In this document: piece by piece, positions 1,613 through 14,781 of the stretch
Layout of the letters: each line of letters starts with the position of its first letter
Position numbering within the stretch: the first letter of the stretch is position 1
Origin: Candidatus Omnitrophota bacterium
GTDB lineage: Bacteria; Omnitrophota; Gorgyraeia; Zapsychrales; Fredricksoniimonadaceae
NCBI GenBank assembly: GCA_903860135.1
Contig: CAIOPG010000007.1
Location: 66,100-130,099, forward strand
Direction: 5' to 3'
DNA: 64,000 nucleotides
Position numbers and translations under genes: made by a program
The notes under the pieces: model-generated
Told to the model about the DNA's origin: nothing
Seen by the model: only the letters and a program-made list of their open reading frames with translations
Databases searched by the model: none

Positions 1613-1978
1613 ATTCGGGTTCCACCCGCAGGTTTTCTTTTTATTTAGAAATGCGGAACAAATCATAGGGTGTGAAAGATCGTATGGCCATAGCAATCAT
1701 CTTGAAGTCAGGGGCAAATATTTTCAAGCAGAAAGCTTGGTTATTCTTGTTTGTTTTTTGTTTTATTTATTGGGCATATTTGATTGCCCATACAACCATG
1801 CCGATCGTCTTTGATTCTATTGATTATGAGAATACGGGAAAGATCATTTATCAGCAGGGGGGCTGGAGTTCGACCCCGCTAAACATGTTCGGAAATGTCT
1901 GTAGATTAATCTTGCCGACAAGAGATTACGGTGTTATATTTCTGTTAATAATCATTTTTGATTATCTATGGAAACAAT

Positions 1979-2614
1979 ATGAAATTTGATGACTTCAAGA
2001 AAGAATTCAAATCTAGGATGTATATTCTGAGCCGGGATGTGCGGACGGATCAGGAAGATCATCAGGCTATGTTGAATCAATTATCCCGTTGGCAGAAAAG
2101 GGGTTTGATTCTTCCTTTACGCAAGGGGGTTTACGTATTGGGGCCTACACAATCAAGCAGTTCTCCTGATCTATTGATGCTGGCCAATATTATTTATGAA
2201 CCATCTTATGTCAGCTTGGAATATGCGCTCCATTTTTATGGTTTGATCCCCGAACGTGTCATGCAAGTCACCTCGATCACGACACGTAAGACAAAAAGCT
2301 TCAAGAATAGTTTTGGATGTTTTGTGTATCAGCATCTTAAGCCCTGCGCTTTCAGAGGTTTCAGGCAAGAGTTGGGGAAGGGCGGGTCTTTCTTTCTGGC
2401 GGAACCGGAAAAGGCCGTAGTGGATTTTCTTTATTTGAATCTGGCACGTTTTACGCATGATCCCTGCCGGGTGATGCAAGAGTCTTACCGGTTTCAGAAT
2501 ATGGAAGACTTACAGCCGGCTCGGTTACTGGAATTGGGACATTTGTTTGAATGCAAGAAATTGATGAAAGTGATCGGAACTTTAACAGAATTTTTGCACC
2601 AGGAGTGTTTATGA
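1979..2614 (+). CDS. abiEi: AbiEi-family antitoxin (type IV TA / abortive infection), transcriptional regulator
   Basis: Central region LANIIYEPSYVSLEYALHFYGLIPE is typical of AbiEi antitoxin domains. It sits directly upstream of an AbiEii nucleotidyltransferase with an ATGA overlap. Start may be 1958 or 1979. Confidence 0.7.
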   Translation: MKFDDFKKEFKSRMYILSRDVRTDQEDHQAMLNQLSRWQKRGLILPLRKGVYVLGPTQSSSSPDLLMLANIIYEPSYVSLEYALHFYGLIPERVMQVTSITTRKTKSFKNSFGCFVYQHLKPCAFRGFRQELGKGGSFFLAEPEKAVVDFLYLNLARFTHDPCRVMQESYRFQNMEDLQPARLLELGHLFECKKLMKVIGTLTEFLHQECL

Positions 2615-3411
2615 TCGATGTCATCCGGCAGCAATTGAAAGCGGAGATGACGGACAGGCAGAAAGAAAACATGACGCGTGAATTCTTGCAGATTCTTTGC
2701 CTTAAGTTGATGCATGACAAAAAAATGTTTGAGGATGTTGCGTTCCTTGGGGGCACATTGTTAAGGCTTCTGTTTGATATGCGCCGTTTCTCGGAAGACC
2801 TGGATTTTTCCCTGATCCGGCCGGGGGATTATGCGATCGCGCAAGTCGCCGATGAGCTTGTAGCGGCACTGCGTTTGTATGGTTTTTCCGTTGAGGCCAA
2901 GGTCAGGATGAATGGTGCTGTTCAGAGCTGTTTACTCAAGTTTGAAGGGCTTCTTAAGGAGCTTGGGCTGTCACCTCTTAAAAGCCAGAAATTATCCATT
3001 AAGATCGACGTAGATACGCGTCCGCCTGATGGGTGGACATTGTCCCGCACACTGGTGAGTAAAACATTTGTTTTTACGGTTACGCATTATGACCAGCCGT
3101 CTCTCTTTGCCGGGAAATTGCACGCGTGTTTTTATCGCACATATACCAAAGGGCGCGACTTTTATGATCTTTTTTGGTATTTGGGCAAGAAAGTACGTCC
3201 GAATTTCTTGTTGCTTAATAATGCTGTTCGGCAAACGCAGGGTATTGATGCCGGGATCAACGAGGGTAACTGGAAATATTTTCTTTTGGAAAAGGTCAAG
3301 AATGTTGATATGATTGATGCTCGGGAAGATGTTCGGCTATTCCTTGAGGATGACAATGAATTAAGGCTCTTTGATGCGGGTATTTTATCGGATGCGATCA
3401 AAGGGGGGTGA
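2611..3411 (+). CDS. abiEii: AbiEii/AbiGii-family nucleotidyltransferase toxin (DUF1814)
   Basis: N-terminal motif FLGGTLLRLLFDMRRFSEDLDFS is the DUF1814/AbiEii nucleotidyltransferase signature (GG[ST]..R......R.S.DLDF). Translationally coupled to abiEi. The ORF track extends the frame to 2551; the ATG at 2611 overlaps the abiEi stop. Confidence 0.8.
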   Translation: MIDVIRQQLKAEMTDRQKENMTREFLQILCLKLMHDKKMFEDVAFLGGTLLRLLFDMRRFSEDLDFSLIRPGDYAIAQVADELVAALRLYGFSVEAKVRMNGAVQSCLLKFEGLLKELGLSPLKSQKLSIKIDVDTRPPDGWTLSRTLVSKTFVFTVTHYDQPSLFAGKLHACFYRTYTKGRDFYDLFWYLGKKVRPNFLLLNNAVRQTQGIDAGINEGNWKYFLLEKVKNVDMIDAREDVRLFLEDDNELRLFDAGILSDAIKGG

Positions 3412-3511: not shown

Positions 3512-4282
3512 ATGAGATCATTTGAATCGGCGGTTGATGGGTACGATGTCTTGGGTGTAAGGATCTCGGCCGTTAATCCTTTGAAAGCCGAGGCGGTGAT
3601 CGCGGACATGATCGCACGCCGGGCCAAAGGTTATGTGTGCGTGGCGCCGGTAGCCACGGTCATGGATTGCCAGAAGGATCCGGATTACCGCGTGCTGGTG
3701 AACAATGCCGCCATGGTTACGCCCGATGGCGCGCCGATCGCCTGGCTGGGGCGGCTGGCCGGGCATCAGGATGTCCGCCGCACCTATGGCCCCGGATTGA
3801 TGGAACAGCTCTGTGATCATGGCAGAGCCTTGGGCTGGAGGCACTTCTTTTATGGTGGCACACCTGAAGCCTGCACGCAGTTGGAGCGTGTCTTGACGGC
3901 CAGGTTCCCGGGGATCGATATCGTCGGCAAGTTATCACCGCCGTATACGCCCCAAGCTATGCCGCTCGCTGTGGACGTGGCGCGTCTTATCAATGCGGCC
4001 AAACCTGATATTATATGGGTCGGATTGGGGGCGCCGAAACAGGATTTCTGGAATGTGATCAATCGCCCTGTGCTTGAAGCACCTGTCCTGGTTGGCATTG
4101 GTGCCGCTTTTGATTTCATTTCCGGTTTAAAACCGCAGGCCCCTGGTTGGATCGGCTCGATGGGATTGGAATGGCTTTTTCGTTTGGGCTGTGAGCCTGG
4201 GCGGCTCTGGCGGCGGTATTTGATCGGCAACACCGTGTTCGTATGGCTTCTGGTCAAAAGCATTTTTCGGAGGGGGAGATGA
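3512..4282 (+). CDS. WecB/TagA/CpsF family glycosyltransferase (GT26)
   Basis: 256 aa. The VLGVRISAVNPLKAEAVIADMIARRAKGYVCVAPVATVM..GTPE...ARFPGIDIVG pattern is typical of N-acetylmannosaminyltransferase-like GT26. Confidence 0.85.
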   Translation: MRSFESAVDGYDVLGVRISAVNPLKAEAVIADMIARRAKGYVCVAPVATVMDCQKDPDYRVLVNNAAMVTPDGAPIAWLGRLAGHQDVRRTYGPGLMEQLCDHGRALGWRHFFYGGTPEACTQLERVLTARFPGIDIVGKLSPPYTPQAMPLAVDVARLINAAKPDIIWVGLGAPKQDFWNVINRPVLEAPVLVGIGAAFDFISGLKPQAPGWIGSMGLEWLFRLGCEPGRLWRRYLIGNTVFVWLLVKSIFRRGR

Positions 4283-5697
4283 TCAAGCGCATATCCGGTA
4301 TTTTTATCCGCACGGCATACATTTCGTTTGATATTGTCAGTGTTCTTTTGGCGATCTTCATCGCGTGTCACTTGAGGGAGCGTGCGTTCCCGGTTGACCT
4401 GCGGGCGCTTTTTCTCGATACAGCCAATCCCTTTCACCTTGTATTCTTGAGTTGGCTGATCGCTGTGCTTTGTTTCAACAGCATATACCAACTTTACGCC
4501 ACGCACCGGGAATGGATGCGCGGGCATGAATTCGGACAGATACTGCGGACGGTCTTTTTCTCTGGGATCATTGTTATGGCGTTTGTTTATACGGCCAAGG
4601 TTTACAATTTTCCCCGTTCGGTATTCCTGCTGATGATGCTTTTGACAGCCGCATTTCTTATATTATGGCGCACCGTAAAAAATCAGTTTGTTGCCTTTCT
4701 GGTGGCGCACGGGTATAACAATTTCAACGTGATCATTATTGGTGCCGGCAAGGTCGGGCTGATGCTTGCCGCCGAGATCGAACGACGCCCGGAGATGGGG
4801 CTGCGCATCGCCGGGTTTCTCGATGATAACAAGAAGAATGAAGCTGTGGGTGGCCGTTACCCGGTGCTGGGGCGGTTGTCTGATCTGCCGGATGTTGCGG
4901 CGCGGCATTTTGCGCACAAGATCATGGTCACGATCCATCCGGACAGCGATGTTTTTCACGCAATCCTTGATACGGCTGATGATCTGGGGCTGGGGGTCCG
5001 TGTGGTGCCCCAGGCTTTCGACAGGGCTGCGGGAGAACTCCTGAAATACAATATCGGTCTTATCCCGGTCCTTGAATACTGCGATATCGGGCATGCGCGC
5101 CGACAATCGGGCAAACGGGCTTTCGACCTTGTTCTTTCCCTGCTGGGGTTGATCGTTCTGATGCCGCTCTTCGTGTGCCTTGCGGTATTGATCAAAGGCG
5201 ATAGCCGTGGACCTGTTTTTTATTTTTCAAAACGTTATGGTCGAGGTGGTCAGGTATTCCGGATGTGGAAGTTCCGCAGTATGTCGGCTGATGCTGAATC
5301 CCGGCTTGAAGCCCTGAAAGAAAAGAACGAGGTCGATGGGCCTATTTTCAAAATTAGGCAGGATCCTCGGGTAACGCGGTTGGGACGCTTTCTGCGCAAG
5401 TACAGCCTTGATGAGTTGCCGCAGATCATCAATGTCCTGCTGGGGGATATGAGCATTGTCGGCCCGCGGCCGCTGCCCCTTGACCAGGTCGAGCAGGAGG
5501 ATTTTAAACAGCTCAAGCGCCTCGAGGTCCATCCGGGGATCACCGGGCTTTGGCAGGTCAGAGGTCGCAGTGACCTGACCTTTGGGCAGTTGGTAAAATG
5601 GGATATCTGGTATATCAACAACTGGTCATTCGTGCTGGATTTACAGATCCTCCTGGAAACGGTTCCTGTTGTGTTAAAGGGGAAAGGAGCCTACTAG
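4279..5697 (+). CDS. polyprenyl-phosphate sugar phosphotransferase (bacterial sugar transferase, WbaP/EpsB-like)
   Basis: N-terminal TM helices, then the C-terminal Bac_transf domain: FDLVLSLLGLIVLMPLF...GPVFYFSKRYGRGGQVFRMWKFRSM...LDELPQIINVLLGDMSIVGPRP. The ATG at 4279 overlaps the upstream stop and is preceded by GGAGGGGGAG. Confidence 0.9.
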   Translation: MIKRISGIFIRTAYISFDIVSVLLAIFIACHLRERAFPVDLRALFLDTANPFHLVFLSWLIAVLCFNSIYQLYATHREWMRGHEFGQILRTVFFSGIIVMAFVYTAKVYNFPRSVFLLMMLLTAAFLILWRTVKNQFVAFLVAHGYNNFNVIIIGAGKVGLMLAAEIERRPEMGLRIAGFLDDNKKNEAVGGRYPVLGRLSDLPDVAARHFAHKIMVTIHPDSDVFHAILDTADDLGLGVRVVPQAFDRAAGELLKYNIGLIPVLEYCDIGHARRQSGKRAFDLVLSLLGLIVLMPLFVCLAVLIKGDSRGPVFYFSKRYGRGGQVFRMWKFRSMSADAESRLEALKEKNEVDGPIFKIRQDPRVTRLGRFLRKYSLDELPQIINVLLGDMSIVGPRPLPLDQVEQEDFKQLKRLEVHPGITGLWQVRGRSDLTFGQLVKWDIWYINNWSFVLDLQILLETVPVVLKGKGAY

Positions 5698-7010
5698 TGA
5701 AAAATCTGAACAGACTTGGGACGGTGGATGTTGATGCGATAATCCTATGGCTTGACCGCGCCGCTTTTGTCTGCCTTTGCGCGCTGGTGTTTATCCTGCC
5801 GGTGTCAACGGCAGGGGTTGAGATATTTGGTTCGCTGGCGGTATTGTTCTTTCTGATGAACCGGGGATTGACCGCAAGGCAAAAAGGGGTTGGGGCGTTG
5901 ATACCCACAGGTGTCAGCCTCAGGATCGCTATTCCCCTTCTCGTTTTTTTGGCTATGTGCGGGATGTCCATTCTCTGGAGCGTTGATCCACAGCTGAGCT
6001 TCCGGGCTTTTGCCGGGAAATCGGTCGGTGCCGCTCTTCTCTTTTGGACAGCTGCGGGTACGTTCACATCGCGGGCAAGGCTGCTGCGCCTGGGTGGGGT
6101 CCTTTTGGCATCGGCGTTTATTGTTTCCCTCGATGGCTTTTGGCAATTATGGCAGGGTCATGATCTTTTCAAAGGAGAAGCCCTCTCCGGTGGGCGTGTC
6201 TGTGCGGCCATGCGGCATCCCAATGGTTTTGGGGCTTATTTGCTCTTTGCTATTCTTCCAGCTTTTGCGTTGACGTGCTGGTCCCTGACCCGTGAGGCGC
6301 ACGGTCTGTTTAATTCCTGGCGGGGGCGTTTACTGCTGGTCGGATTAACAGTTGTCTTGTGTGCGGCTATCGGGTTTACATTTTCACGCGGTGCCTGGAT
6401 CGGTCTGTTCGCGGGGGTGGTGGTCTTGATCGTCTTACGGCCAGGCTACTTCTTGCCGCTGGCTCTGGCGGCGGGTTTGTTCCTGATCATTTTTTCACCA
6501 CTGATCATTTCTTTGCGGCATGTGGGGGTGCTTTCGGATTCGCCTTCAGTCACCAACATCTTTGATACGACCAACATCAATGGTACGGGCAGGATCGGCT
6601 TCTGGAAGGATGCTTTGCGGGTGATCGCCGAGCATCCCGCGGGCACGGGCTTAAATACATATACGACGGTCATCCGGCAATATCCGGTGGCGTGGCGCGC
6701 CTATCCCCATAATTCATATTTGCAAATGGCGGCGGAGATCGGTGCCGTTGGCCTGACGGTATTCTTGTGGTTTATCTGGAGCTTTATATGGCAGACAGCC
6801 GGGAGGATCAGGCGGTTCCGCCACGACGTGACAGGGGCGTTGATCACGGGCCTGTTGGCAGGGTGGGTGGGCGTCATGGTGCAGAGCGGGCTGGACACAA
6901 CCTTTTATTCGGTGCAGTTAAGCCGGATGCTTTGGCTGATGATGGGGCTCCTTCTGGCGGCAGTCTTGATCGAGAGCAAGGATAGTCCGGAACCGGAAAC
7001 AAAGGCTTGA
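5697..7010 (+). CDS. O-antigen ligase / Wzy_C family polytopic membrane protein
   Basis: Multiple TM helices. Motifs RGAWIGLFAGVVVLIV and PHNSYLQMAAEIGAVGL (Wzy_C). GTG start at 5697 overlaps the upstream TAG and is preceded by AAAGGGGAAAGGAG. Confidence 0.8.
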   Translation: MKNLNRLGTVDVDAIILWLDRAAFVCLCALVFILPVSTAGVEIFGSLAVLFFLMNRGLTARQKGVGALIPTGVSLRIAIPLLVFLAMCGMSILWSVDPQLSFRAFAGKSVGAALLFWTAAGTFTSRARLLRLGGVLLASAFIVSLDGFWQLWQGHDLFKGEALSGGRVCAAMRHPNGFGAYLLFAILPAFALTCWSLTREAHGLFNSWRGRLLLVGLTVVLCAAIGFTFSRGAWIGLFAGVVVLIVLRPGYFLPLALAAGLFLIIFSPLIISLRHVGVLSDSPSVTNIFDTTNINGTGRIGFWKDALRVIAEHPAGTGLNTYTTVIRQYPVAWRAYPHNSYLQMAAEIGAVGLTVFLWFIWSFIWQTAGRIRRFRHDVTGALITGLLAGWVGVMVQSGLDTTFYSVQLSRMLWLMMGLLLAAVLIESKDSPEPETKA

Positions 7011-7133: not shown

Positions 7134-8354
7134 ATGAGCAAGATGACGGTGCGCGACATTGATCTTAAAGGGAAACGGGTCATTATCCGGGTGGACTTCA
7201 ATGTGCCGCTCGATGGCGACCATATTACAGATGATATCCGTATCCGGGCGGCAATCCCGACGATCAAATATGTCGTGGAGCATGGCGCGGCCAAGGTGAT
7301 TTTGATGAGCCATCTGGGGCGTCCGGCCGGCAAGGGGTTTGAAAAAGAATTTTCGCTGGCGCCGGCGGCGCAGCGTCTGGCCGAATTGCTCGGTCAGCCG
7401 GTAACCCTCCTGGCGGATTGTGTCGGTGAGGCTGTCAGTAAGGAAGCCGCGGCGGCCCCGGCGAAGATCCTTCTGCTGGAGAATCTCCGGTTCCATAAAG
7501 AAGAAGAAAAGAACGACCCTGCTTTTGCCAAAGAGCTGGCGTCGCTCGCTGATGTTTATGTTAATGATGCCTTCGGAACGGCGCACCGCGCCCACGCCTC
7601 GACGGCAGGGCTGGCGGCGTATTTGCCGGCGGTCAGCGGGTTCCTGATCGAGAAAGAGATCGAGTATCTCGGTAAAGCGATCAATGCCCCGGAGCGTCCG
7701 TTCGTGGTTGTGCTCGGCGGCAAGAAAGTGTCCGACAAGATCCTCTTGATCGAAAATCTGCTGAAAAAGGCGGATACTATCCTGATCGGCGGCGGCATGG
7801 CCTACACCTTTCTTAAGGCGCGCGGCATCAATATCGGCAATTCCAAACTTGAAAAAGACAGGATCGAACTCGCGGCCGAGATCATGACCAAGGCCATGGC
7901 GGCCGGGGTTCAGATCGAAATGACTGAAGATTTTGTGATCGTTCCCAATTTTGATTCTGATGATGCCCAGATCTCGGATGTGATCCCGGACGGGTTCGAA
8001 TCACTGGATATTGGCCCCAAGACACGTGCCAAGTTCAAGGCCATTCTTTCTGGGGCCAGGACGGTCATCTGGAACGGTCCGCTGGGTGTTTTTGAACGCG
8101 CGGCATTCGAGAATGGCACCAAAGAGATCGCCCTGCATCTGGCGTCCTTGCACGATAAGGGCGTTAAAACCATCATTGGCGGCGGTGATTCCGCGGCGGC
8201 GGTGGCGAAGTTCGGGTTGGAAGACAAGATGACGCATATTTCCACGGGCGGCGGCGCGGCGCTCGAGTATCTTGAAGGCAAGGAGCTTCCGGGAATAACG
8301 GCGCTCAATGACAAGAAAAAGGCATCGGGCTGCTGTTGCGGCGGATGCCGGTAA
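7134..8354 (+). CDS. pgk: phosphoglycerate kinase
   Basis: [64 protein letters not shown] is a classic PGK N-terminus. Confidence 0.95.
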
Positions 8355-8375: not shown

Positions 8376-9131
8376 ATGCGCAGGAAGATCATCGCAGGTA
8401 ACTGGAAAATGTACAAGAATCCGGCGGAAGCCGTGGCTCTCGTTGAGGGGTTGAAGAAGGAACTGGCCGGACAGACGGCGGTGGATGTGGTTGTTTGTCC
8501 TCCGTTTGTCAGTCTGACGGAAGCGGCAAGGGGGCTCGCGGGTTCAGCTATAGCACTCGGCGCGCAGAATCTTTTTTGGGAAGCCGAAGGGGCGTTTACG
8601 GGAGAGATCTCCGGTGCCATGATCAAGGCGTCGGGTGCGGAATATGTTATCATTGGGCATTCCGAGCGTCGTCAGTATTTTGGTGAGTCCAATGAGACGG
8701 TCAACCGGCGCCTCAAGGCCGCTTTCAGGTATGCATTAAAGCCCATTGTTTGTGTGGGCGAGAATCTGGCCGAGCGCGAAGCGGGTAAAACGTTTGACGT
8801 GGTCAAGGATCATTTGACCGGGTCTTTGGCGGGCTTGACCAAAGAAGACATGAACACCGTTGTCATTGCCTATGAACCTGTGTGGGCCATCGGTACCGGC
8901 AAGACAGCCACTTCAGCGCAGGCCCAGGAAGTGCATCAGTTCATCCGCGGCATCCTTGTCCGCCTGTTTGATGAACCGACGGCCGAGGCGGTAAGGATCC
9001 AGTATGGTGGCAGTGTGAAGCCTGAGAATGCAGCAGAACTCATGTCCCAGCCGGACATTGACGGGGCGCTGGTCGGAGGCGCGAGCCTGAAGGCGGATTC
9101 ATTTGCGGCCATCATCAAGAATGCGGCTTAA
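8376..9131 (+). CDS. tpiA: triose-phosphate isomerase
   Basis: [10 protein letters not shown] start and an IGHSERR-type motif. Conserved pgk-tpiA-secG order. Confidence 0.95.
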
Positions 9132-9145
9132 TTAAAGGAGTTTTT

Positions 9146-9496
9146 GTGATCACTTTTATCACTGTCATCCATGTTATTACCTGTGTGCTTTTGATCGCTT
9201 CCATCCTGATGCAGTCGGGCAAGGGCGGCGGCCTGGCGCAGGGGTTTGATTCGGCGGAAAATCTGCTCGGTGCCCAGACCAATCAGTTCATCCTCAAGGT
9301 GACAACAACGCTTTGCGTCATCTTTTTAGCGACGTGCATCGCCACAGCGCTTTTGACATCGAAGAAACAGCGTTCGTTGCTTGACGCCATGCCTGATGCG
9401 CGCAAGGCACCGGTGACCGTGAATGTCGAGAAACTCTTTGACCAGGCTCCCGCGCAGACCATCGTGATCAATGCGGCGACCAACAGCGCCGAGTGA
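9146..9496 (+). CDS. secG: preprotein translocase subunit SecG
   Basis: Small two-TM protein with LLIASILMQSGKGGGL. GTG start after AAAGGAG. Confidence 0.85.
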   Translation: MITFITVIHVITCVLLIASILMQSGKGGGLAQGFDSAENLLGAQTNQFILKVTTTLCVIFLATCIATALLTSKKQRSLLDAMPDARKAPVTVNVEKLFDQAPAQTIVINAATNSAE

Positions 9497-11220
9497 AAAG
9501 CTTCTCAGGTTTTTTAACGGGCACAACAGGGTTATTCCTGTTGTGCTCTTTTATTTTAGCGGCCACGCCCGCTGGCGTTAATGGTGCGGTGATGCCGCGT
9601 TATGGCGGGGCGATCTTCCTGGCGACGACCTCGGATCCGCGTTCGTTCAATCCCATCCTTGCCAAGGAATCATCGACCACCCTGATGACGCGTCACATGT
9701 TTGAAGGGCTGACGACCATGGATCCTTTCACGCTCAAGGTTATCCCCGCTCTGGCGGAGCGCTGGGAGGCGGACCCGGGTGGCCTCGTCTGGACTTTTCA
9801 CCTCCGCAAAGGGCTTCTTTGGTCCGACGGGGTTGCTTTGACGGCGGCTGATGTGGCGTTTACGTTCAATGACCTTATCTTTAATGACGATGTGCCTAAT
9901 TCCGCGCGCGATATTTTTACCCTTGAAGGCAAGCCGATCCGGGTTGAGGCTGTTGATGCCCAGACGGTTCGATTTATCCTGCCGGTGCCCTTTGCGCCTT
10001 TTTTAAGAAGCCTAGGGCAGGAGATATTGCCCCGGCATGTACTTGCCGAAGCTGTCCGGGCCAAGAAATTCGCCTTTACCTGGGGGATCGATGCCCGGCC
10101 GGACACTATCGTCGGGACAGGGCCTTATAGGCTGGCGGAGTATCAGCCGGGGCGTCGGGTTGTTTTTCGCGCCAATCCGTATTATTGGAAGAAGGCCGCT
10201 GACGGTGCCCGGTTGCCCTATATCCCCAAGATCGAATATGTCATTGTTCCCGGGACGGATGTCGAGCTCCTGAAGTTCATCGAGGGCAGTCTGGATGCTT
10301 ACACCCTGCGCGGCATGGACTATCCTTTGTTAAAACCGCAGGAGTCAGCCCGAGGCTTCACGGTATACGATCTCGGACCGGATATGGGGACAAGTTTTAT
10401 CACGTTCAATCAGAATCCCGGCAACAATCCTGTGAGCGGCAAGCCCTATGTGGTGGCCCGCAAGCGCGCCTGGTTCACGGATATCCGTTTCCGTCAGGCG
10501 GTGGCGCATGCGGTCGACAAGCAACGCATCATTGAGATCGTCAAGAACGGCCTGGGGTATCCCCAGGATTCTCCGGAAAGCCCGGCTGCGGGATTTTTCT
10601 ATTGCGCGGATGTCAGGAAGTATACGTATGACCTGGATGCGGCGCGGGAGCTTTTGGCGGCAATGGGTTTTGCGGACAAGGATGGCGACGGGATCCTCGA
10701 GGACGGAGACGGGTTAAAGCTCGAGTTTAACCTTTACACGAATGCCGACAGCACCGAACGCGCCGACGTGGCCGCCATCATCCGCAGTGACCTGGAGCGC
10801 GTGGGCATGAAAGTCAATCTTCAGCTGGTGGAGTTCAATACACTGGTCGCCAAGCTGACATCAACGTATGACTGGGATGCCGTTATCCTTGGCCTTACCG
10901 GCGGTGTTGATCCTCATTTCGGGCAGAATGTCTGGCGTTCTTCCGGCCAGCTGCATCTGTGGAATCCCCGGCAGGCCGCTCCGGCAACCGCATGGGAAAA
11001 ACGCGTGGATGATATCTTTTCCGCCGGGGTGCAGGAGTTCAATGAGGACAAAAGAAAAGCCCTTTATGATGAATACCAGAAGATCGTCGCTGAGGAATTG
11101 CCGGTGGTCTATACCGCGCTCGGCGCTCAGCTCATGGCGGTGAAGAACCGCTTCGGCAACCTCAAACCATCGCCGTTGGGCGGGGTTTTTCATAACATTG
11201 AAGAAATATACATCAAGTGA
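9493..11220 (+). CDS. ABC transporter substrate-binding protein, peptide/nickel family 5 (OppA/DppA-like)
   Basis: 575 aa with a signal peptide and SBP_bac_5-type sequence. Followed (after the insertion) by two permeases and two ATPases. Confidence 0.85.
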   Translation: MKSFSGFLTGTTGLFLLCSFILAATPAGVNGAVMPRYGGAIFLATTSDPRSFNPILAKESSTTLMTRHMFEGLTTMDPFTLKVIPALAERWEADPGGLVWTFHLRKGLLWSDGVALTAADVAFTFNDLIFNDDVPNSARDIFTLEGKPIRVEAVDAQTVRFILPVPFAPFLRSLGQEILPRHVLAEAVRAKKFAFTWGIDARPDTIVGTGPYRLAEYQPGRRVVFRANPYYWKKAADGARLPYIPKIEYVIVPGTDVELLKFIEGSLDAYTLRGMDYPLLKPQESARGFTVYDLGPDMGTSFITFNQNPGNNPVSGKPYVVARKRAWFTDIRFRQAVAHAVDKQRIIEIVKNGLGYPQDSPESPAAGFFYCADVRKYTYDLDAARELLAAMGFADKDGDGILEDGDGLKLEFNLYTNADSTERADVAAIIRSDLERVGMKVNLQLVEFNTLVAKLTSTYDWDAVILGLTGGVDPHFGQNVWRSSGQLHLWNPRQAAPATAWEKRVDDIFSAGVQEFNEDKRKALYDEYQKIVAEELPVVYTALGAQLMAVKNRFGNLKPSPLGGVFHNIEEIYIK

Positions 11221-11261
11221 TGCGGAGTGTCTGCCGGGTATGCTTAAATATGTCTTGTGAG

Positions 11262-11315
11262 AAAAGGAAAGGGCAGTCCCTGCGCTGGGGACAGATCAAT
11301 AAATTCGGGTTGTAC
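11262..11315. repeat. left copy of ~55-bp direct repeat (GGAAAGGGC + GC-rich short inverted repeat + AATAAATTCGGGTTGTAC) flanking the YhcG-like gene
   Basis: About 50/55 nt identical to 12647..12701. It contains a GTCCC..GGGAC inverted repeat. Confidence 0.8.
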
Positions 11316-11346
11316 ATTGGTCGTTTTTGGATGCCCCCCACCCATG

Positions 11347-11377
11347 CCCGCCCCACGGCGGGGGCGGGTGTTATTTT
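11347..11377 (+). terminator. rho-independent terminator-like hairpin (CCCGCCCC-acggcg-GGGGCGGG + TGTTATTTT)
   Basis: 8-bp GC stem with a 6-nt loop followed by a T-rich tract, downstream of the SBP gene. Confidence 0.6.
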
Positions 11378-11419
11378 AGTCATGACTGATAATGGCAATA
11401 TTCGAGGGTTATAGTATGT

Positions 11420-12688
11420 GTGCGGCCAGTAAGATTCAGGAACGGATTGTGGTTGCTGGTAGAAATGGAGGCAAAGAGAGCGATGAATAAGAATAAATCT
11501 TTAAATAATTCGCTGTTCGAACGGGTTGTTTTTATTCTGGAAGCTGCACGATCTAATGTTGTGCGAGCTGTTAATACCAACATGGTCATTGCTTACTGGC
11601 TTATTGGTCGGGAGATTGTGCAGGAAATTCAGGGCGGTGTCGGTCGGGCAAAGTACGGCGAGAAAGTGCTAAAACAGCTTTCTTCACAATTAAAAGAAAA
11701 GTATGGTCGTGGGTATTCTATCAGTAACGTACAGTATTTTAGGACGTTTTACACGGTTTATGCGGAGCGCAAGCCTGAGATTCACCAGATCGGATCTGGT
11801 GAATTGCTCAAACAGGCAGACAAACGAAATGTCGTCGGTGCTCGTGAAGATATGTCGTTGGCAATCGAGACAAGCACGGCCATTCGGGGGTTTTCTCCGA
11901 ATCTTGGTTGGTCACATTATCAGGTACTGATGACTGTTGAAAATAACAATGAACGTCTGTTCTACGAGATAGAGGCGGAGAAGGAGAATTGGGATGTTAA
12001 GCATCTGAAGCATCAAGTTTATTCATTCCTTTTTGCCAGGCTCATGAAAAGCAAGAATAAAGACGGTATGATGGCATTGGTGCGCGAAGGACAAAAGATT
12101 ACGACTCCAACTGATATTATTAAGAGCCCATATATTCTCGATTTTCTAGGCATTCCTGATGCAGACCAGTTACATGAAACAAAGTTGGAAGAGGCAATTA
12201 TATCTAATATTCAGTCTTTCCTTCTGGAATTGGGAAAAGGTTTCGCTTTTGTTGGTCGGCAGAAGCGTCTTCAATTTGATGAAGATTATTATTACGTGGA
12301 TCTCGTTTTTTATAATTGTATTTTGAAGTGTTTTTTGTTGATCGATTTAAAAATAGGGGAGCTGACCCATCAGGATGTTGGTCAAATAGACAGTTATGTG
12401 CGTATGTTTGATGATAAATATCGCACGGAGGGAGACAATCCGACTATAGGATTGATTCTATGTGCAAAAAAGAGCGAAACCATAGCACGATATTCCGTAC
12501 TTAAAGGAAGCAAACAAATTTTTGCATCCAAGTATATGTTGTATTTGCCGACAGAAGATATGTTGCGGCGAGAAATTGAGCGTGAACAACGCCTGATTGA
12601 AGAAAAGATATCGAAAGACGAAATGGCTGATCACCGAAAGAACTTGAAAGGGAAAGGGACAGTCCCTGCACCGGGGACAGGGCAATAA
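11420..12688 (+). CDS. YhcG-like DUF1016 protein with C-terminal PD-(D/E)XK nuclease domain
   Basis: N-terminal SLNNSLFERVVFILEAARSNVVRAVNTNMVIAYWLIGREIVQE is typical of DUF1016/YhcG. C-terminal YYYVDLVFYN...LIDLKIG fits the D...(D/E)xK nuclease motif. AT-rich codon usage, unlike the neighbours. The true start is likely the internal ATG near 11465 or 11483. The last ~14 codons are encoded by the right flanking repeat. Confidence 0.7.
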   Translation: MRPVRFRNGLWLLVEMEAKRAMNKNKSLNNSLFERVVFILEAARSNVVRAVNTNMVIAYWLIGREIVQEIQGGVGRAKYGEKVLKQLSSQLKEKYGRGYSISNVQYFRTFYTVYAERKPEIHQIGSGELLKQADKRNVVGAREDMSLAIETSTAIRGFSPNLGWSHYQVLMTVENNNERLFYEIEAEKENWDVKHLKHQVYSFLFARLMKSKNKDGMMALVREGQKITTPTDIIKSPYILDFLGIPDADQLHETKLEEAIISNIQSFLLELGKGFAFVGRQKRLQFDEDYYYVDLVFYNCILKCFLLIDLKIGELTHQDVGQIDSYVRMFDDKYRTEGDNPTIGLILCAKKSETIARYSVLKGSKQIFASKYMLYLPTEDMLRREIEREQRLIEEKISKDEMADHRKNLKGKGTVPAPGTGQ

Positions 12689-12701
12689 ATTCGGGTTGTA
12701 C
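12647..12701. repeat. right copy of ~55-bp direct repeat flanking the YhcG-like gene
   Basis: GAAAGGGAAAGGGACAGTCCCTGCACCGGGGACAGGGCAATAAATTCGGGTTGTAC, near-identical to 11262..11315. It overlaps the 3' end of the YhcG-like CDS and lies 18 bp upstream of the permease start. Confidence 0.8.
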
Positions 12702-12718
12702 CTAGGAATTGATTTGAT

Positions 12719-13684
12719 ATGTTCAAATACATTATAAAACGAATGTTGATCGCGCTGGGCCTGCTCCTGGTCATGAGCTGTGCGACGTTCATGCTCATGC
12801 GCCTGACGCCGGGGAATTTTCTGGATACGTTGCGCCTTGATCCGCAGATATCCAAGGACACACTGGCGTACTACAGCCAGTTGTATCAGCTCGACAAGCC
12901 GGCCTGGCAGCAGTATCTGCACTGGCTGGCGGGCCTCTTTCGCGGTGAGCTGGGGTATTCTTTTTATTATAATGTCCCGGTGGCTAAAATTATTGGCGCG
13001 CGCCTGGGCAATACCTTTATCCTGTCGCTGGCGGCATTTCTGGTGACCTGGCTGGCGGCTATTCCGCTGGGGATCTGGGCGGCCCTTCATCGCGGCAACT
13101 GGCGTGACCGCGCGATACAGTTTGCCGCCTATGCTGTCGTGTCTTTGCCTGGTTTCTTCGTGGCCATGGTCTTGCTTTATTGGGCGAGCATCACAGGTTG
13201 GCTTCCGCTGGGCGGCATGGAGAGTCCCGGTGCCGGCGATCTGTCCTGGTGGGCCCGGGGGCTCGACAGGCTCAGGCACCTGGTCATTCCGGTGACGGCC
13301 CTTTCACTGGCGTCGATCGCGTTATTGCAAAAGATCATGCGCGGCAATATGCTCGAGGAACTTGGGAAACAGTATATCTTCGCGGCCCGGGCGAGAGGGA
13401 TACCGGAGAACCGGGTCATTTACAGCCATGCCCTGCGCAATGCCATCAATCCCATGATCACCCTGCTGGGGTATGAATTCGCGGCACTTTTAAGCGGCGC
13501 GGCGCTCATGGAGATCATCACTAGCTGGCCCGGCCTTGGGAGCCTCATGCTGACAGCGGTCCGTTCCAAGGATATTTATCTGGTGATGGCAAATATGATG
13601 ATGGGTGGTATTTTGTTTATGGTCGGAAACCTTCTGGCGGATATCGCTCTTGCCAAGGCGGACCCGCGGATAAGGATCAGGTGA
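12719..13684 (+). CDS. ABC transporter permease (OppB/DppB-like)
   Basis: N-terminus MFKYIIKRMLIALGLLLVMSCATFMLMRLTPGNFLD with the permease EAA-loop region. Confidence 0.9.
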   Translation: MFKYIIKRMLIALGLLLVMSCATFMLMRLTPGNFLDTLRLDPQISKDTLAYYSQLYQLDKPAWQQYLHWLAGLFRGELGYSFYYNVPVAKIIGARLGNTFILSLAAFLVTWLAAIPLGIWAALHRGNWRDRAIQFAAYAVVSLPGFFVAMVLLYWASITGWLPLGGMESPGAGDLSWWARGLDRLRHLVIPVTALSLASIALLQKIMRGNMLEELGKQYIFAARARGIPENRVIYSHALRNAINPMITLLGYEFAALLSGAALMEIITSWPGLGSLMLTAVRSKDIYLVMANMMMGGILFMVGNLLADIALAKADPRIRIR

Positions 13685-14781
13685 TGCCAATGGAAACACC
13701 GCGCGGTGAAACGGGTTTGGCCTGGCAGCGGTTCATGAAAGATCGTGCGGCGGTTGTCGCGCTGTGGATCCTGGGGATATTTTATGCCGTGGCCATCCTG
13801 GCCGATGTGGCGGCACCGTATACGCTTAAGGATGAATCGCGCGAACATCCCTATTGCCCGCCCACGGCGGTGCATTTCTTCGCGCCCGACGGGCGTTTTG
13901 CCGGAGCTCATGTGCGCGGGGTTCAAATGACCTATGATCATTTCCGGCGGCGTATTTACAATGAAACCGCAGACATCTATCCGCTGAGATTTTTCGGTCG
14001 GGGTGAAACGTACCGCTTCCTTGGGGCTTTTCCGGCGGACAGGCATATCATCACGGTTGATGCGCCGGGGCGTATTTATTTATTGGGAGCGGACAGCCGG
14101 GGGCGCGATGTGTTTTCAAGGATCATCCACGGCGCGCGGGTTTCGCTGACGATCGGCTTGTTCGGTGTTCTGATTTCTTTTAGCATAGGCTTGCTGGTGG
14201 GCGGTATTGCGGGATATTTTGGCGGGCGGACGGACCATGTCCTCATGCGCCTGTGCGAGATGGTGATGATGGTGCCGGGGTTTTACCTTTTGCTGGCGTT
14301 GCGCGCCGCGGTTCCGGACAGCCTGGATTCCTTGCAGGTTTATGCCGCGATCATAATCATCCTTTCGTTTATCGGGTGGGCCGGATTAGCGCGTGTTATC
14401 CGCGGGATGTGCCTTTCGTTGAAGGAACGGGATTATGTGCTGGCCGCGCGCACCATGGGCTTGAGTGACCTGCAGATCATTGTGCGCCATATCCTGCCGC
14501 ACACGCTTTCCTATTCACTGGCGGCTGTGACGTTAGCCGTGCCCGGGTATATCCTGGGCGAGTCAGCCTTGAGCCTTATCGGCCTGGGCATTCAGGACCC
14601 TTACGCGAGCTGGGGCAATATGCTCGCCGAGGCCATGAGCATTGTGCGGATACAGTTTGCCCCGTGGATCCTTTGGCCGGCGTTTTTTATAGGGATAACG
14701 GTCTTGTGTTTTAATGCGGCAGGTGATGCCCTGCGCGATGCGTGGGATCCGTTGCTCAAAGGCCGCGGGGAGGGCGCATGA
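13681..14781 (+). CDS. ABC transporter permease (OppC/DppC-like)
   Basis: N-terminal OppC_N-like region followed by a BPD_transp_1 membrane domain. ATGA coupling on both sides. Confidence 0.9.
   Translation: MMPMETPRGETGLAWQRFMKDRAAVVALWILGIFYAVAILADVAAPYTLKDESREHPYCPPTAVHFFAPDGRFAGAHVRGVQMTYDHFRRRIYNETADIYPLRFFGRGETYRFLGAFPADRHIITVDAPGRIYLLGADSRGRDVFSRIIHGARVSLTIGLFGVLISFSIGLLVGGIAGYFGGRTDHVLMRLCEMVMMVPGFYLLLALRAAVPDSLDSLQVYAAIIIILSFIGWAGLARVIRGMCLSLKERDYVLAARTMGLSDLQIIVRHILPHTLSYSLAAVTLAVPGYILGESALSLIGLGIQDPYASWGNMLAEAMSIVRIQFAPWILWPAFFIGITVLCFNAAGDALRDAWDPLLKGRGEGA

Follow-up and report, generated by a model that had tools for sequence, protein, structure and literature searches.

Acquisition of a YhcG/DUF1016 nuclease gene, bracketed by two imported copies of a foreign spacer, by a transporter operon of Candidatus Omnitrophota

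A 1.5-kb segment of foreign DNA was found in an operon for an Opp/Dpp-type ABC transporter on contig CAIOPG010000007.1 of a Candidatus Omnitrophota bacterium (GenBank assembly GCA_903860135.1), within a stretch of 64,000 nt (positions 66,100 to 130,099 of the forward strand) that is referred to below as the window and numbered from its first letter. The segment holds one credible gene and no partner gene; the gene encodes a PD-(D/E)XK nuclease-family protein of the YhcG/DUF1016 family and stands between two direct copies of a repeat of about 55 nt. By comparison with an allele of the same species that lacks the segment, the insertion point is inside the coding sequence of the first permease gene, after codon 6, and both repeat copies belong to the insert; the repeat itself is the native spacer between the substrate-binding protein (SBP) gene and the permease gene of another Omnitrophota lineage. 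On the right, the junction is a homologous crossover of the ordinary kind, placed differently in two filled strains; on the left, the filled alleles share a single non-homologous join. The C-terminal tail of the nuclease is a product of recombination and not a native end. The case is well documented, but it is one of ordinary gene gain by recombination and not a new kind of mobile element; entry is explained by ordinary recombination with the conserved operon as landing pad. The insert and the operon features described below lie on the + strand.

Limits of the insert and the empty allele

The empty allele, contig L061, was retrieved via contigs encoding an identical SecG protein and is 97.7% identical to the window. 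By blastn, L061 1-2339 corresponded to window 8919-11257 and L061 2340-3666 to window 12737-14063, leaving a segment of 1479 bp (11258-12736) that is missing from L061; foreign-type sequence runs on from there to ~12748-12755. Because the DNA inserted relative to the empty allele is 11258-12736, both repeat copies (11261-11315 and 12646-12701) lie within it. In L061 the SBP stop codon (TGA) is followed by TGCGGAGTGTCTGCCGGGT and then by ATGCTTAAATATGTCTTG|AAACGC..., the beginning of an intact permease gene of 321 aa that starts MLKYVL|KRIL. The left part of this arrangement is kept in the window, where the native 19-nt SBP-permease spacer of the species (TGCGGAGTGTCTGCCGGGT, 11221-11239) is identical to that of L061 and is followed by a relic of the original permease start (ATGCTTAAATATGTCTTG, encoding MLKYVL, 11240-11260), the same 18 nt as in L061 closed by a TGA that is formed by the first 3 nt of the insert. 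Since the MLKYVL start survives there, a permease gene once began at this relic.

Orthologous loci were collected by a scan with the SBP protein over one genome per species, which returned 18 loci, nearly all labelled Candidatus Omnitrophota. The order secG-SBP-permB-permC was kept in 18/18 and the YhcG gene was present there in 0/18; being absent from all of them, the nuclease gene is a lineage-specific insertion. A preliminary description of this DNA, drawn from the letters alone, had placed the insertion between the SBP and permease genes of an otherwise contiguous operon; the insertion into the operon is borne out by the 18 loci and L061, all empty, and the site has to be moved into the permease gene itself. 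Filled alleles of this species were present on contigs from at least 7 samples and the empty allele in one sample.

The segment also differs in composition, with a GC content of 36-46% against 54-62% in the flanks (by gene, 0.406 for the nuclease gene, 0.559 for the SBP gene and 0.566 for the permease gene), so that the earlier report of an AT-rich segment carrying a single DUF1016/YhcG-like gene holds on this drop in GC and on the Pfam matches given below. No recombinase gene was found from ~11 kb upstream to ~9 kb downstream of the insert (window 93 to ~20,000), in agreement with the earlier failure to see an integrase or transposase; terminal inverted repeats were not found at the insert, nor was a transposase domain in the neighbouring genes. 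On identical public contigs, gene callers annotate a 64-aa 'hypothetical protein' at 11217-11414. This open reading frame (ORF), which takes in the SBP stop, the relic of the permease start, the left copy of the repeat and the terminator-like hairpin, is almost certainly spurious.

Origin of the direct repeats

The two repeat copies, of 55 and 56 nt, are identical at 50/56 positions (89%) with one 1-nt indel; the near-identical direct repeats of ~55 bp first reported are therefore present, with slightly corrected limits (11261-11315 and 12646-12701) and at 89% identity. Both halves of the repeat (the stem-loop core and CAATAAATTCGGGTTGTAC) occur exactly twice each in the window, where shuffled sequences give expectations of 0.00 and 0.02. 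A pattern scan of the whole metagenome collection for the repeat motif returned a single contig, L041, which is an orthologous empty junction with one copy. In a further relative, L003, whose SBP is 80% identical, the junction is uninterrupted and consists of a 133-nt native spacer that again contains one repeat copy. The uninterrupted junction with a single copy for which the preliminary description had proposed a search is thus found in L003 and L041, and L061 is empty with no copy. Below, 'type B' denotes the lineage of L003 and L041 and 'type A' the species allele as in L061.

Against the L041/L003 native spacer, the left copy (S_L, 11261-11315) is 47/57 (82%) identical and the right copy (S_R, 12646-12701) 53/57 (93%), the latter rising to 96-98% in local BLAST alignments of 47-51 nt. 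Both are copies of the type-B spacer. The right copy supplies the last 14 codons and the stop of the nuclease ORF, as had been reported, together with the leader of the permease gene; the left copy is probably non-functional in its present place.

Each copy folds into a short stem-loop (left, GTCCCTGCGCTGGGGAC, 11276-11292; right, GTCCCTGCACCGGGGAC, 12662-12678) built on the inverted repeat GTCCCTG-loop-(C/T)GGGGAC. The stem of 6-7 bp is present in both centroid folds, which upholds the hairpin of the preliminary description, but it is weak, since fold stability in the two regions does not exceed that of shuffled sequence (z = +1.1 and -0.3). Hairpins of their own are also present in several of the SBP-permease spacers of the 18 orthologous loci, which range from a 7-nt overlap up to 140 nt, plus one of 589 nt. 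Rfam searches gave nothing credible in 10900-13000, and around five homologues of the nuclease gene in other contexts no flanking repeats were found above chance.

Several other origins of the repeat were considered and rejected. A dispersed element of the REP/BIME type is contradicted by the count: the 64-kb window has two copies, which both belong to the insert, and the metagenome collection gave one hit, at the orthologous junction. A target-site duplication in this genome is contradicted by L061, which is without any repeat copy, and by the position of both copies within 11258-12736; the 55-bp repeat, previously discussed as a duplication, is not one of the target here, and both copies were imported. 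A 'Russian-doll' version, in which the left copy is a complete relic spacer with a relic permease ATG, was dropped as a claim, similarity beyond ...GGGTTGTAC not being significant, and stands only as one conceivable origin of the duplication.

Junctions and direction of the event

To locate the right junction, all sites that distinguish A (L061) from B (L041) within the first 330 nt of the permease gene were typed. The permease gene of the window (12719-13684; Pfam, alignment and site typing) is chimeric, with donor (B-type) bases at nt 4-30 and species (A-type) bases from nt 37 onward, which places the homologous crossover of this strain within 12748-12755. In a second filled strain, L001 (~98% identical overall), B-type bases extend over nt 4-111 and A-type bases begin at nt 135, so that its crossover lies at permease nt 111-135. 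The left junction, 11257|11258 (ATGTCTTG|TGAGAAAAGG), is abrupt and identical in all filled contigs, and the leader and nuclease gene are 99-100% identical between the filled strains. Homology at the flanks is present on the right side only. A 10-nt identity, ATTGAAGAAA, shared by the 3' ends of the SBP and nuclease genes was considered as junction microhomology and treated as chance: the shared letters encode Ile-Glu-Glu in either gene, a tripeptide conserved across the YhcG family, and the similarity stops there.

L061 as a deletion derivative of a filled allele was likewise rejected, because three of its permease sites (nt 24, 27 and 30) are A-type, and the filled alleles have the B-type or a third base there.

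Between the filled strains there is one sharply diverged patch (window 12540-12826 against L001 3760-4100), which extends from the tail of the nuclease gene through the right spacer into the start of the permease gene. In L001 the B-type spacer is still full-length (88% identical to that of L003 over 97 nt) and the nuclease has a different C-terminal tail; in the right spacer of the window the 5' half is nearly identical to L041 and ~45 nt are missing further on. These differences point to type-B DNA bearing the nuclease gene as a partner in one or more additional homologous exchanges, and the diverged patch implies that such exchange recurred here and drew on more than one type-B donor. At the C-terminal tail of the nuclease, homology within the family ends near residue 380, the tails vary, and the ORF of L001 reads into a different spacer, in support of the earlier suggestion that recombination created this C-terminus.

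The nuclease gene and its protein

The nuclease gene (11483-12688) encodes 401 aa. Its start codon is the ATG at 11483, as chosen by gene callers on identical contigs (not 11486 or the GTG at 11420), with GGAGG 11 nt upstream. In Pfam the protein matched DUF1016_N (PF17761, E=2.6e-35, 121.9 bits, gathering cut-off 32.8 bits) and YhcG_C (PF06250, E=2.1e-56, 190.6 bits, gathering cut-off 32.5 bits), and in PADLOC it matched the candidate single-gene phage-defence system PDC-S02 (PDLC04807, E=1.8e-134, residues 4-377). The catalytic motif E249, D273, D288-x-K290 is invariant in 20 aligned homologues. The protein also matches a PHROG of unknown function; no NCBIfam model matched it, and no solved relative was found by sequence or profile search of the PDB. 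An AlphaFold model built from 20 close homologues had a mean pLDDT of 46 and was unusable.

Homologues number in the thousands, and the best 120 are 66-96% identical and come from unrelated phyla. At the DNA level the nearest homologues are 74-75% identical, with the similarity confined to the ORF, and belong to genomes of 38-40% GC. Only two proteins make up the 90% cluster, and neither exact sequence was found outside the context of this species. Between the two filled strains, codons 1-375 differ by 5 synonymous and 3 non-synonymous changes, too few for a test of selection. Within the coding sequence, at 11780-11804, there is a perfect palindrome of 12+12 nt (ATTCACCAGATC G GATCTGGTGAAT), which is also present in L001.

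Family contexts and the question of defence

Five of the 7 relatives whose surroundings were examined sit within Type I, Type III-like or BREX-like operons: P0004 (between hsdM and hsdS) and P0005 in Type I restriction-modification (R-M) loci, P0035 and P0101 (the latter overlapping both neighbours) in a Type III-like Mod-YhcG-Res order, and P0027 in a BrxC/PglY-YhcG-methylase order. The other two, P0002 and P0097, are in non-defence neighbourhoods. Enrichment of DUF1016 next to R-M and BREX genes has been described (PMC9881135). The family is thus associated with defence by neighbourhood, and a defence role may be proposed for the nuclease studied here, which keeps that part of the minimal 'defence or addiction cassette' first suggested; an addiction function has no support, the insert holding one credible gene without a partner. 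Relatives on plasmids (515) and in phage records (14) were all below 60% identity, and a phage or plasmid vehicle was rejected, only such distant relatives being found there.

In a Type I R-M island of Elusimicrobia (L047), two different YhcG-family genes were observed at 5001-6185 and 8661-9683, one between hsdM and hsdS and the other a 340-aa paralogue following a gene for an AAA/SMC-like ATPase.

Expression signals and effect on the operon

Just downstream of the left repeat there is a strong intrinsic-terminator-like hairpin (11344-11371; 11 pairs, 8 of them G-C) with a T-run (11344-11381 together), and upstream of the nuclease gene a weak sigma-70-like promoter match, CTGATA-18-TATAGT (11386-11415; 9/12 consensus matches). 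Both lie in a 167-nt leader (11316-11482) that showed no similarity to any locus compared. No + strand terminator was found between the nuclease and permease genes. The permease gene now begins at 12719 (MFKYII...), and this start came in with the insert, as did the ribosome-binding site and the leader in front of it. Because the terminator-like hairpin and the promoter match precede the nuclease gene and no terminator precedes the permease gene, the permease and ATPase genes are probably now transcribed with the nuclease gene and no longer with the SBP gene, as judged from these predicted signals.

Host operon and other features of the window

The insert lies in a gene row of the order pgk, tpiA, secG, SBP_bac_5, two permeases and two ATPases, all on the + strand, whose ends overlap or abut; apart from the insert the operon is contiguous, as first described. 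The SBP gene (SBP_bac_5, 9493-11220, Pfam E=2.5e-81) is species-type sequence as far as its stop codon, being colinear with L061 to 11257 at 97.7% identity. Its start is ambiguous between 9493 and 9538, and public gene calls give 575 aa (from a GTG overlapping the secG stop) or 559 aa.

At the same SBP-permease junction, another Omnitrophota genome (L013) has a non-coding spacer of 589 nt (7686-8275) with two long imperfect palindromes, one with 40-nt arms at 7706-7885 and one with nested 29- and 24-nt arms at 7948-8175. These look MITE-like or like long hairpins and had no Rfam match. The L013 spacer suggests that this junction tolerates or attracts insertions repeatedly.

A second defence-type module was noted within a same-strand gene row elsewhere in the window, at 1958-3411 in a patch of 45% GC. 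It is a toxin-antitoxin or abortive-infection pair of an AbiEi-like gene (weak, E=0.004) and an AbiEii gene (E=8.5e-24) that stands amid the glycosyltransferase genes of a polysaccharide-synthesis row (GT1, 497-1612; WecG, 3512-4282; a sugar transferase; Wzy). No long flanking direct repeats were found around it.

Proposed mechanism

The reading preferred here, to which a probability of roughly 70% is given, is that of one-sided homologous plus illegitimate recombination with DNA from a donor that has not been sampled and that already had the spacer in duplicate. The immediate donor would be a related Omnitrophota lineage whose spacer is the single-copy sequence of L003 and L041, and at the donor stage the nuclease gene would already have stood at this same junction between two spacer copies. 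From there, a single Candidatus Omnitrophota species would have received 1.5 kb of DNA into the 5' end of its first permease gene, with one YhcG/DUF1016 nuclease gene as cargo together with that gene's own putative upstream terminator and probably its own promoter. On the right side the conserved permease gene would have served as homologous anchor, and on the left side the ends would have been joined without homology immediately after permease codon 6. The imported spacer, ribosome-binding site and first ~10 codons would thereby have replaced the permease 5' end and left the transporter gene intact, the original start persisting as the 6-codon relic, and later homologous exchanges would have reshuffled the right-hand patch among strains. 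The spacer may have been duplicated in the donor by a similar earlier event, with a type-B genome as recipient and the spacer of that recipient left behind as a relic; alternatively, a circular copy may have integrated in the Campbell manner, or a recombinase may have acted in trans.

This anatomy argues for homology-facilitated illegitimate recombination, because one join is homologous, the other is abrupt and non-homologous, and the displaced resident sequence is kept. The process is reportedly treated by de Vries and Wackernagel (2002) and by Prudhomme et al. (2002). It is an established process, on record from transformable bacteria and from conjugation in E. coli (PMC3240628).

A number of points weigh against the reading. 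The empty allele is represented by a single contig from a short-read assembly, and a filled allele of the donor (type-B) lineage was not found in the collections searched; with the donor filled allele unsampled, microhomology at the left join cannot be scored and a site-specific join is formally possible. The reading does not itself account for the spacer duplication at the donor stage, and the relic start codon predicted for the left copy failed its shuffle test (1809/5000 shuffles scored as well). The promoter and terminator calls are consensus matches only. As regards function, the titles and abstracts returned by a literature search were those of surveys and mentioned no experimental test of phage defence or DNA cutting by PDC-S02/YhcG. 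Finally, we know of no natural competence or other DNA-uptake route in Omnitrophota.

Alternative explanations

The strongest competitor, although an unlikely one, is a non-autonomous integrative cassette, in which the hairpin spacer is an att- or attC-like site acted on by a recombinase encoded elsewhere and a circle of gene plus spacer entered a resident spacer, as in attL/attR pairs or integron arrays. Same-orientation repeats with an inverted repeat do flank a single gene, the stem is kept while the loop varies among four spacer variants, and the element restores the end of the gene that it interrupts, as many integrative elements do; the donor-stage duplication would also follow naturally from such a cassette, or from a Campbell-type single crossover of a circle. 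Entry into this species, however, did not use the spacer, the empty site being without a copy of it, and the right junction, which a cassette would be expected to fix, falls at two different positions within homologous coding sequence. The motif was found only at the orthologous locus, five other family members examined are without flanking repeats, and no recombinase gene lies in the interval searched around the insert. With the right junction a plain homologous crossover of variable position, nothing requires the unusual cassette-like or site-specific mechanism that the preliminary description had offered as one possibility. Considerably less probable is a homing-like self-mobilisation, whereby the YhcG nuclease would cut operons at empty junctions of co-oriented genes and its gene would be copied in when a filled allele served as template for the repair, in a one-sided manner where flanks had diverged. 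Such a process would leave a nuclease gene alone between co-oriented genes and a co-conversion-like donor tract of variable length, of the kind seen on the right, and it would suit a family that retains ~70-80% protein identity across unrelated phyla and stands repeatedly inside operons. If true, it would explain the presence of YhcG between the genes of Type I, Type III-like, BREX-like and ABC-transporter operons, the 70-80% identity across phyla and the co-travelling relic spacers of earlier hosts. There is no evidence of cleavage specificity, though, the target sequences in the different operons are unrelated, and the left flank is without homology; in R-M and BREX operons the gene tightly overlaps its neighbours like a resident subunit, and the data are explained by ordinary recombination.

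Two further explanations are very improbable. A transposition-like event with widely staggered cuts and a long (~55 bp) target-site duplication would place direct repeats immediately around the cargo, as observed, but relative to the empty allele both copies are inside the insert, their identity of 89% is low next to the ~2% by which the surrounding strains differ, and terminal inverted repeats and a transposase were not found. To our knowledge ~55 bp is also far outside known lengths of target duplications. Hardest of all to sustain is an ancestral arrangement with secondary deletions as empty alleles, or a ubiquitous REP-type element, both of which the preliminary description had itself raised. 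The filled allele is indeed the commoner among sampled contigs of the species; all 18 outgroup loci, on the other hand, lack the gene, its GC is 15 points below that of the flanks, L061 with its A-type bases at permease nt 24, 27 and 30 is not a simple deletion derivative, and the relic MLKYVL start marks an earlier beginning of the permease gene. The motif, with its two copies in 64 kb and one contig in the metagenome collection, is not ubiquitous.

Significance

With empty, filled and donor-type alleles in hand, the locus is a cleanly resolved natural example of a single defence-type gene entering a housekeeping operon in an uncultivated phylum, and one in which the interrupted gene was spared, the insert supplying a substitute leader and 5' end. 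It also advises caution in the reading of sequence: a long repeat around a foreign gene resembled a target duplication or an att site, yet was baggage from a previous host. As a stand-alone YhcG/PDC-S02 copy with its own putative expression signals and no restriction partner, the gene is a convenient construct for tests of single-gene defence or nuclease activity.

Comparison with known systems

The nuclease agrees with the YhcG/DUF1016 family (PF17761 + PF06250; COG4804; PDC-S02) in its full-length two-domain match and E...D...DxK motif, and in being a single gene of a kind that is associated with defence by neighbourhood and is horizontally mobile on plasmids, integrative and conjugative elements and prophages. 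It differs in that most of the close relatives examined lie in Type I, Type III-like or BREX-like operons, whereas this copy is alone in a nutrient-transport operon and has a terminator and promoter-like leader of its own. The position of those relatives recalls the PrrC anticodon nuclease, which is nested inside the EcoprrI Type Ic locus: they too stand between methylase and specificity or restriction subunits in the same orientation, often overlapping. The sequence is unrelated to PrrC, however, and the copy studied here is without a restriction partner.

The replacement of a gene end is familiar from integrative elements that carry a substitute end for the gene they interrupt, such as the lambdoid phage 21 and e14 in icd and the islands that target tRNA genes. 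As in those elements, a diverged copy of the terminus of the interrupted gene was brought in, leaving that gene in working order, with a diverged duplicate beside the element. Here, in contrast, an integrase and a fixed crossover point are lacking, the part replaced is the 5' end with its leader, and the insert is only 1.5 kb long with a single cargo gene.

A further likeness is to the 'sequential displacement' arrays of T6SS effector-immunity modules in Vibrio cholerae and of Rhs orphan tips, for which homology-facilitated illegitimate recombination has also been invoked (PMC5361080). Common to both are a junction within conserved homologous sequence paired with a non-homologous one, an orphan relic of the displaced resident beside the newcomer, and the possibility that repeated events stack the relics of successive hosts. 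The present case differs in its anchor, which is the 5' end of a housekeeping permease gene, and in its cargo, a nuclease gene, and the pathway proposed for it is read from the anatomy of the junctions in an uncultivated organism.

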